From Escherichia coli (lineage in GTDB: Bacteria > Pseudomonadota > Gammaproteobacteria > Enterobacterales > Enterobacteriaceae): a DNA stretch of 1,647 nt. The stretch is taken from NCBI RefSeq assembly GCF_003334765.1, contig NZ_QOWT01000077.1. One strand, 5' to 3'. The notes below the pieces were generated by a model. It did not search any database, was not told the DNA's origin, and saw nothing but the letters and a program-made list of their open reading frames with translations. Shown one piece after another: positions 365-640 of the stretch (position 1 is its first letter; every line of letters begins with the position of its first letter). Both the position numbers and the translations under genes were made by a program.

Positions 365-389
365 GGGGTGTCGGGGTGAAGCCCTGACC
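365..389. repeat. Left arm of 25-bp inverted repeat (inverted partial copy of the bom arm)
   Basis: GGGGTGTCGGGGTGAAGCCCTGACC is the reverse complement of 613-637 at 24 of 25 positions (mismatch at 377/625). The two arms are separated by 223 bp. Confidence 0.9.
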
Positions 390-394
390 AAGTG

Positions 395-432
395 GTAATC
401 GTATCGGCGTGCATGCGCGGTTATACGATTAC
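395..432. repeat. Hairpin-forming inverted repeat (10-bp perfect stems GTAATCGTAT / ATACGATTAC, 18-nt loop containing GCATGC)
   Basis: 395-404 is the exact reverse complement of 423-432. It lies between the left IR arm and the tandem repeats. Confidence 0.8.
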
Positions 433-539
433 ACATCCTGTCCCGATTTCTGAGGCGTTTTAACGGTGAACGGACGGCAAAAACACGATGGAGCTGTTGA
501 ACGTGAAAACCACGAAATCTGGCAAAAATCACGGCTGGC

Positions 540-581
540 GAGGCTTGCATAGGAGTAAGCGAGGCTTGCATAGGAGTAAGC
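540..581. repeat. Perfect tandem direct repeat, 2 x 21 bp (GAGGCTTGCATAGGAGTAAGC)
   Basis: 540-560 and 561-581 are identical. On the minus strand the repeat begins exactly at the predicted nick (GCTTACTCCTATGCAAGCCTC twice). Confidence 0.95.
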
Positions 582-640
582 CAGTATACACTCCGCTATC
601 GCTACGTGACTGGGTCAGGGCTTCGCCCCGACACCCCCAA
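577..640 (-). other. ColE1/pMB1-type oriT (bom) with predicted nick between 580 and 581 on the minus strand
   Basis: The minus strand reads GGGGGTGTCGGGGCGAAGCCCTGACCCAGTCACGTAGCGATAGCGGAGTGTATACTGGCTTA. From memory this matches the pBR322 bom region (GGGTGTCGGGGCGCAGCCATGACCCAGTCACGTAGCGATAGCGGAGTGTATACTGGCTTA) with only about 3 substitutions. The nick is placed by analogy to the CTGG/CTTA context. The pBR322 sequence is recalled, not aligned. Confidence 0.75.
613..637. repeat. Right arm of 25-bp inverted repeat (part of the bom/oriT)
   Basis: GGTCAGGGCTTCGCCCCGACACCCC pairs with 365-389. Confidence 0.9.

Follow-up and report, generated by a model that had tools for sequence, protein, structure and literature searches.

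What is the inverted repeat that flanks the mobilisation region of a very small Escherichia coli plasmid, and is it an element in its own right? The window (the whole 1,647-nt stretch of DNA analysed here, from contig NZ_QOWT01000077.1) had been described in an initial annotation as carrying a 25-bp inverted repeat (365-389 against 613-637, 24/25), the left copy of which was taken to be an inverted partial duplicate of one arm of a ColE1-type oriT (bom). The repeat is real and slightly longer than was claimed: the two arms, at 365-393 (GGGGTGTCGGGGTGAAGCCCTGACCAAGT) and 609-637, are 29 nt in length, are complementary at 27/29 positions and have 215 nt between them. In 200 dinucleotide-preserving shuffles of the 1570-bp circle that the window represents, the best 29-nt inverted match was 24/29 and none of the 200 reached 27. 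The hairpin at 395-432 and the 21-bp tandem repeats that had been noted between the arms are also present, the latter as exact copies (538-558 and 559-579). The answer to which the evidence below leads us, and which we hold with considerable confidence, is that two related oriTs stand head to head on a 1.57-kb plasmid with repA as its only gene, with their arms outward and their nick sites inward, the inverted repeat being a by-product of this arrangement.

Positions 1-77 of the window are repeated exactly at 1571-1647. This terminal duplication is most likely an overlap arising from the assembly of a circular molecule, the true unit being 1570 bp. Whole-length identity to hundreds of 1.5-kb plasmids from E. 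coli, Klebsiella and Shigella in PLSDB is 98.5-98.8%, and 335 PLSDB records span at least 80% of the plasmid, the best of them at that same level of identity across 100% of its length. The type plasmid among these relatives is pKL1 (NC_002145.1, here L001; 1549 bp, E. coli) with the replicon Col(MG828), and the window belongs to the same family by virtue of full-length identity that includes repA and the Rep-binding repeats upstream of it. The window has in common with pKL1 the RepA gene, both oriT modules and the spacer between them, at 98.5% whole-molecule identity; it differs by one SNP and by an extra copy of the 21-bp unit at 538-579 (1570 against 1549 bp). Three more single-base differences from the pKL1 record, at 614, 626 and 1386, may be errors of that old record.

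The sole conserved ORF of the window is repA (867-1343). The RepA accession WP_000469298.1 is annotated identically in pKL1 and in L017, L018 and L020, and comparison of the Rep ORF with NCBIfam gives weak winged-HTH matches only. Upstream of repA, at 734-781, lie two 23-25-nt repeats and a perfect 12-nt palindrome (GTTGTCGCATCC/GGATGCGACAAC), which presumably correspond to the RepA-binding sites or oriV repeats of pKL1 mentioned in PMC3832669. The length differences seen in L017 (1582 bp) and L019 (1640 bp) lie outside the 365-637 region and reflect a 33-nt and a 91-nt repeat, respectively, both of which are probably assembly overlaps. An Rfam scan of the window found nothing in 365-637 and two sub-threshold chance matches elsewhere. 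PLSDB and MOB-suite type the plasmids of this family as mobilizable despite their having no relaxase, and pKL1, with its one gene, is typed in this way.

When positions 340-660 are used as a query, the region splits into two: 364-449 matches 85-110-kb conjugative plasmids at 83-92% identity, and 575-637 matches thousands of small ColE1-like plasmids. On the left, 365-445 is 92% identical to the oriT of the IncK2/Z plasmid NZ_LR890609 (L002 4001-4086), where the match lies directly upstream of a nikA-like mobA gene and a MOBP relaxase gene, and 83% identical to 3501-3588 of the IncI-gamma/K1 plasmid L010, where the genes immediately downstream are annotated as IncI1-type nikA and nikB. Placed side by side, the window and these native oriTs have in common an arm (GGGGTGTCGGGG-N4-GCCCTGACC), a long inverted repeat and a nick region (ACATCCTGTCCCG). 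In the window, all three are found on the plus strand: the left arm at 365-393 is the distal small-hairpin module, with a stem-loop at 370-388 (GTCGGGG-TGAA-GCCCTGAC) that is presumably the counterpart of the small distal repeat of R64 labelled the '8-bp inverted repeat'; the long inverted repeat occupies 395-432 (GTAATCGTAT...ATACGATTAC); and the nick region occupies 433-445 (ACATCCTG^TCCCG, the caret marking the nick), with a predicted nick that we take, from the MOBP consensus, to lie at 440^441. Since the left arm, the hairpin and the nick region all match the native oriTs, 365-445 is a complete oriT of the IncI complex (R64 family) with an IncK2/Z flavour, the left arm being its own distal small repeat. 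No ColE1 bom is found near the native IncK2/Z and IncI-gamma oriTs. The window itself encodes neither nikA nor nikB, and the module is thus an orphan oriT that depends on trans-acting proteins. It has already entered the reference set of oriTs as oriT_pKL1, a member of the oriT_R64 family (bioRxiv 10.1101/2024.01.30.577996).

An alignment of 16 I-type modules bears out this assignment element by element. The distal small inverted repeat (370-388) is invariant in 16/16 modules and the columns of the nick region are invariant or nearly so, with 433-445 identical in the window and in the native IncK2/Z and IncI-gamma oriTs; CATCCTGTCC is identical in 14 I-complex-type modules, and the two pEC34A-like modules (in L011 and L012) have GTATCTTG. 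In the long repeat, 395-404 pairs with 423-432, ending 8 nt 5' of the predicted nick, and compensatory changes are seen at 9/14 pairs. The covariation score of this hairpin is 0.337 against 0.150 in shuffles (0/500 reach the observed value), and slid controls score 0.081 at most. The long repeat would correspond to the NikA-binding repeat of R64-type oriTs, and it probably sets helper specificity. In the window the long stem is identical to the native IncK2/Z stem (L002); in other members of the pKL1 family the long repeat is R64-like or of other flavours, a diversity which suggests that helper specificity has itself diversified. The helper range of the window is accordingly to be read as a prediction, as its long hairpin is of the IncK2/Z flavour and not that of R64 itself.

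The right-hand module is of a different kind. Occupying 577-637 on the minus strand, it consists of the arm, core and nick motif (TATACTGG^CTTA) of a ColE1-type oriT, with the distal small-hairpin module of that oriT (GTCGGGGC-GAA-GCCCTGAC) forming the right arm at 609-637. Positions 577-636 are 98.3% identical to 2794-2853 of the ColE1-like (colicin-E1) plasmid pH1519-7 (L003), a carrier of mobC, mbeB and mbeD, and every ColE1-type module has TATACTGG^CTTA without a mismatch, at a distance of 56-57 nt from where the arm starts. The predicted nick, which we place by the ColE1 literature, is taken to lie at 581^580 of the minus strand. No ORFs corresponding to the mbe (mob) genes are present in cis in the window, which makes this module too an orphan oriT. 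Abutting the right arm, at 640-668, is a 13-bp stem-loop (AAGGGCGTTGCGT-TGC-ACGCAACACCCTT) that is kept in L005 and L008 and replaced in L006 and L007.

The resemblance to ColE1 does not end at the bom. A ColE1-like ori-distal segment lies at 262-340 on the plus strand, colinear with ColE1-type plasmids: 270-328 matches L003 2641-2699 (83%, E 5.5e-11), its strand and order agreeing with those of the bom match, and also L004 1875-1937 (81%). The whole segment, which is kept across the pKL1 family and in L011, has its homologue in the ori-bom interval of ColE1/pMB1; it contains GAGGAAGCGGAAGAG and may resemble PriA (n') primosome assembly sites. Just upstream of it, at 239-272, is a perfect 10-bp inverted repeat (CGGGATCACC ... 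GGTGATCCCG) with a spacer of 14 nt. The distance between the two colinear blocks (270-328 and 577-636 in the window, 2641-2699 and 2794-2853 in L003) is 249 bp in the window against 95 bp in L003, so that the interval does represent an insertion relative to ColE1-type oriTs, as had been suspected, with the 262-340 segment as its left flank. Reading the sequences directly, ColE1 CTGATGC-C-GCATGG..TAAGCCAG corresponds to CTGATGC (364) ... GCATAGGAGTAAGCCAG (568-584) in the window. The inserted DNA, ~180 bp (~200 bp with the 21-bp duplication), consists of the I-type oriT and a 92-bp spacer, placed ~20 nt 3' of the ColE1 nick. This spacer (446-537), which lies between the two nick sites, is specific to the family: it is found in ~512 PLSDB records, nearly all of them 1.2-2.6-kb plasmids of the pKL1 family, and none of the I-complex and ColE1 plasmids examined contains it.

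The ColE1-type nick is also where the 21-bp tandem duplication is located. The two exact copies of the unit (GCGAGGCTTGCATAGGAGTAA) at 538-579 are represented by a single copy in most family members. Read along the minus strand, the region is TATACTGG^CTTACTCCTATGCAAGCCTCG^CTTACTCCTATGCAAGCCTCG^CCAGCC. The unit CTTACTCCTATGCAAGCCTCG thus starts exactly at the predicted nick (CTGG^CTTA...CTCG^CTTA...), its register being ambiguous by 2 nt (GC), and its end falls at CTCG^CC, which resembles a nick site. Identical duplication boundaries occur on three backbones, those of the window, L018 and L020, each of which has a single-copy sibling that is nearly identical to it. One SNP separates the window from single-copy pKL1; L018 has 3 SNPs relative to single-copy L008 and 79 relative to the window, and L020 has 19 relative to the window. 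Each of the three has a lineage-specific T or G variant in both copies. A recurrent origin is the simplest reading of these results. Carriers of the duplication are rare (as a rough figure, ~3 of 268-390 records). The duplication may have come about by over-length termination by a relaxase at a pseudo-nick, which would give exactly such a product; slippage on GC microhomology, or repeated collapse of an ancestral duplication, may be the explanation instead.

That oriTs of two different families have such similar arms finds its explanation in a module that both families possess. We catalogued ~30 arm-bearing modules in 17 sequences, including native plasmids with a single oriT. The arm is the 5' element in every one of these modules, and the nick motif follows at +75 to +78 from the arm in I-type modules and at +56/57 in ColE1-type modules. 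The part common to both families amounts to ~25 nt (GGGTGTCGGGG-N3/4-GCCCTGACC) forming a small imperfect hairpin, after which come a core and nick that are family-specific. Folded alone, the left and right arms of the window reach -5.2 and -7.5 kcal/mol, respectively. The arm hairpin is invariant across the 16 I-type modules, a G.T position included, and shows no covariation, indicating that it is conserved at the level of sequence. The right arm of pKL1 has the loop CGAA, typical of I-type modules, rather than the CGCA typical of ColE1; about half of within-plasmid arm pairs have the same loop flavour, but CGAA and CGCA are common anyway and the sample is small and phylogenetically non-independent. 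A homologous element is seen in CloDF13 (L021 9752-9780; GGGTG^GTCGGGC-GTGA-GCCTGAC), which has the same G.T position in its stem and which, according to a passage quoted in PMC5935869, is nicked at the 5' edge of the small hairpin. To judge from these comparisons, three oriT families possess the arm as a module while differing in where they nick, and a simple requirement for a hairpin does not explain the invariance of the arm's primary sequence across the three. A role for the arm hairpins as terminators was considered and rejected, as no T-run follows on either strand.

The two modules of the window are independent of one another. Both are kept in 6/7 aligned members of the pKL1 family; L009 (1306 bp) has the I-type module only, homology to the window ending near position 496, and L003 has the ColE1-type module only. 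Other combinations are also seen. Three modules, with inward-facing arms and rop between them, are carried by the ColK-like L004 (one of ColE1 type, the others representing two I-type flavours); in L014 and L015 there are two I-type modules each, differing in hairpin flavour; and L016 combines the I-type and the ColE1-type in direct orientation. Inverted orientation prevails in most of the sampled plasmids that have several modules. In the three plasmids with two I-type oriTs each (L004 2733/4070, L014 366/1391 and L015 1825/266), the long hairpins differ from one another and are internally compensated, which suggests that these plasmids are collections of oriT mimics tuned to different I-complex helpers.

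How might a plasmid organised in this way be mobilised? It encodes no relaxase, from which we infer that it is mobilised in trans. On one route, a co-resident I-complex plasmid, the best match being of the IncK/Z type, would supply NikA and NikB, which would bind to the long hairpin and cut the plus strand at 440^441. On the other, MbeA/MbeC-type proteins from a ColE1-like plasmid in the same cell would act on the minus strand, nicking it at 581^580. Either of the two strands would then be exported via the type IV secretion system of a helper. Within each oriT the arm would most likely act as it does in R64, in the termination of transfer: Furuya and Komano are said to have implicated, in 2000, the two sets of inverted repeats in the R64 oriT in this process. 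Precedent for mobilisation of this kind is provided by pEC156, a relaxase-less plasmid with F-type and R64-type oriTs that is mobilised by both helpers, and is no longer mobilised after oriT deletion (PMC4743918). There is also incidental evidence closer to hand, a 1554-bp plasmid of the pKL1 class having been present in some IncI1 transconjugants (PMC4382111).

Several other readings of the locus have to be weighed against this one. It had been proposed that part of the ColE1 bom arm was duplicated locally, in inverted orientation, to give a left arm that offers an extra site to ColE1 relaxosome proteins, and the close match of the arms (27/29 here, 25/25 in some family members such as L005) fits with such an origin, as does the within-plasmid resemblance seen in pKL1, where the loop of the right arm is I-type-like. 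We nevertheless regard it as very improbable: the left arm runs directly into an I-type core and nick region that are complete, native conjugative plasmids of the I complex carry the same arm in the same position upstream of nikA and nikB with no bom, and L009 has the left arm with no right module. The presence of the arm in those native plasmids is the kind of observation that the initial annotation had itself named as refuting its proposal. The inverted repeat is a by-product of two homologous oriTs placed head to head and not a local duplication, two copies of the same module in opposite orientation being read as a 27/29 inverted repeat. A related suggestion, that the left arm marks a second relaxosome site, survives in altered form, as the arm belongs to the IncI-complex-type oriT at 365-445. 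It could also be supposed that the pairing of the arms is itself functional, early- and late-entering copies forming a 29-bp stem that joins the 5' and 3' ends for recircularisation, or that the arms constitute an inversion switch. Both strands do pair their arms in MFE and centroid structures when folded as ssDNA (z = -6.0 and -5.2), most sampled multi-module plasmids have their modules in inverted orientation, and L011 has the mirror-image arrangement expected after inversion at the arms. The predicted fold, however, follows trivially from any 27/29 inverted repeat, native oriTs and plasmids with a single module function or persist though they lack a second arm, and L016 has its two types in direct orientation; a functional role for pairing therefore seems highly unlikely to us, although pairing in ssDNA at equilibrium may have an effect on termination. 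As for the physical forms envisaged in the initial annotation, a dsDNA cruciform is implausible, since a spacer as long as 215 nt disfavours its extrusion, whilst the ssDNA stem is thermodynamically possible with no sign of its being used. Deletion by recombination between the arms can be set aside because inverted repeats invert the DNA between them and do not delete it. For inversion, the predicted inverted junctions were built and searched, alongside the native junction, in PLSDB and in complete E. coli genomes. The native junction is covered to at least 80% in 375 PLSDB records, and the inverted junction is crossed by only three (H101, H102 and H103); among the records of 5426 complete E. 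coli genomes, 268 (from 259 genomes) contain the native junction and none the inverted one. H102 is a concatemer considered an artefact by others (bioRxiv 10.1101/2024.01.30.577996). H103 is L011 (CP066327.1, 1395 bp, Salmonella), in which positions 673-1171 have the pKL1 left flank and the CTGATGC^arm junction followed by a ColE1-type core, with an I-like core (GTATCTTG^TCCCG) at the opposite arm, giving a mirror-image topology; the record has no replicon typed and no annotation. A (recent) simple inversion of pKL1 was rejected as its origin, as its spacer is unrelated and has no sequence in common with that of pKL1. H101 is L012 (NZ_CP138471.1, 2967 bp), a cointegrate of an L011-like 1395-bp plasmid and a pKL1-family plasmid, for which an assembly artefact is possible. 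Among the records with the native junction, 375 in PLSDB and 268 from E. coli genomes, there is thus no inverted isoform, which speaks against an inversion switch and against the earlier proposal that the arms serve as a substrate for inversion.

The cointegrate L012 bears on a further reading, according to which the arm is a block of homology for exchanging oriT cores between plasmids by modular shuffling or gene conversion, so that the repeat would have its importance in evolution and not in the mechanics of transfer. Positions 1386-2848 of L012 represent the whole of L011 at 95% identity, and the junctions at 1386-1446 and 2788-2848 are ColE1-type oriTs in direct orientation that are reciprocal chimeras, with the crossover between core position +34 and the nick. 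The joining of this molecule at its oriT modules is in keeping with core exchange, as are the finding that the left flank with the CTGATGC^arm junction leads to an I-type core in pKL1 and to a ColE1-type core in L011 and L012, and the ColE1/pMB1 flavour (CGCAGCCATGACC) of an I-type arm in L004, identical to the plasmid's own bom arm. Weighing against it are the small size and phylogenetic non-independence of the sample, the commonness of both loops in any case, and the length of the homology, 25-29 bp being close to the shortest that RecA-dependent exchange can use. Recombination between oriTs does occur, but the case documented here involves like modules on different molecules and not the two arms. 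Core exchange is compatible with the head-to-head arrangement that we favour, and we consider it unlikely on balance as an account of the arm. The broader proposal that the arm, as the one block which R64-type and ColE1-type oriTs have in common and which CloDF13 has in diverged form, is a portable crossover point for swapping oriT cores between small plasmids, and that orphan oriTs are actively processed with the 21-bp duplication and the oriT cointegrates as the scars, is one that we advance tentatively and with considerable doubt. The possibility that each arm is a nick site for a third relaxase of the CloDF13 type (MOBC), making the arms nested extra oriTs, derives from the small hairpin and G.T position that the arms have in common with CloDF13 and from the nick at the 5' edge of that hairpin in the account quoted in PMC5935869. 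We give it very little credence, as the 11-nt motif GGGTG^GTCGGG is not exact in the window, where the arms read GGGTGTCGGGG, one indel away; the exact motif was found only in CloDF13 itself (L021, at 9752), and there is no evidence of nicking at the arm in ColE1 or R64.

Two related oriTs placed head to head, each a mimic of the origin of a different helper system, would explain how one of the smallest and most widespread E. coli plasmids spreads without transfer genes of its own; the native junction of the pKL1 family is present in 259/5426 complete genomes. This lends support to the prevailing view, in which many plasmids considered 'non-mobilizable' owe their mobility to orphan oriTs. There is also a lesson for annotation: where an inverted repeat is found on either side of an oriT region, its two copies can simply be the end module that a pair of homologous oriTs have in common. 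Of modest additional interest are the mixing of oriT cores as modules and the recurrent duplication anchored at the nick: if confirmed, the latter, together with the oriT-joined cointegrate, would represent natural footprints of relaxase action on orphan oriTs.

Taken individually, the parts of this feature are of known kinds, R64-family and ColE1-type orphan oriTs on pKL1, the I-type half of which has already been catalogued. With the native oriTs of the IncI complex (R64/IncI1, IncK, IncB/O and IncZ, served by NikA and NikB, MOBP), the left module has in common the small distal hairpin, the long repeat 8 nt from the nick and CATCCTG^TCCCG, but whereas the native arm is located 15 nt upstream of the nikA start codon, that of the window abuts a ColE1-like segment with no nikA or nikB. 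The right module resembles the bom of ColE1 and pMB1 (MbeA, MOBP5/HEN) in its arm, core and nick motif, at the 98.3% identity noted above, and in having a colinear ori-distal flank; it differs in lacking the mbe genes and the RNAI/RNAII replicon, in the ~180-200 bp inserted and in its CGAA loop. CloDF13, with a MOBC-type nic region, has the homologous small hairpin preceded by GGGTG, but the nick is at the 5' edge of the hairpin, going by the passage quoted above, whereas the ColE1 and R64 families nick 56-78 nt downstream. Carrying two orphan oriTs is likewise a known strategy, as pEC156 demonstrates: like the window, pEC156, pKPN2 and pSe-Kan are relaxase-less plasmids with no mob genes that carry two oriT mimics for different helpers (PMC4743918, PMC9282650). 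Those plasmids combine F-type and R64-type or ColE-type oriTs with a ColE1 replicon, whereas the window combines R64-family and ColE1-type oriTs, head to head, on a Rep-dependent replicon of 1.5 kb.
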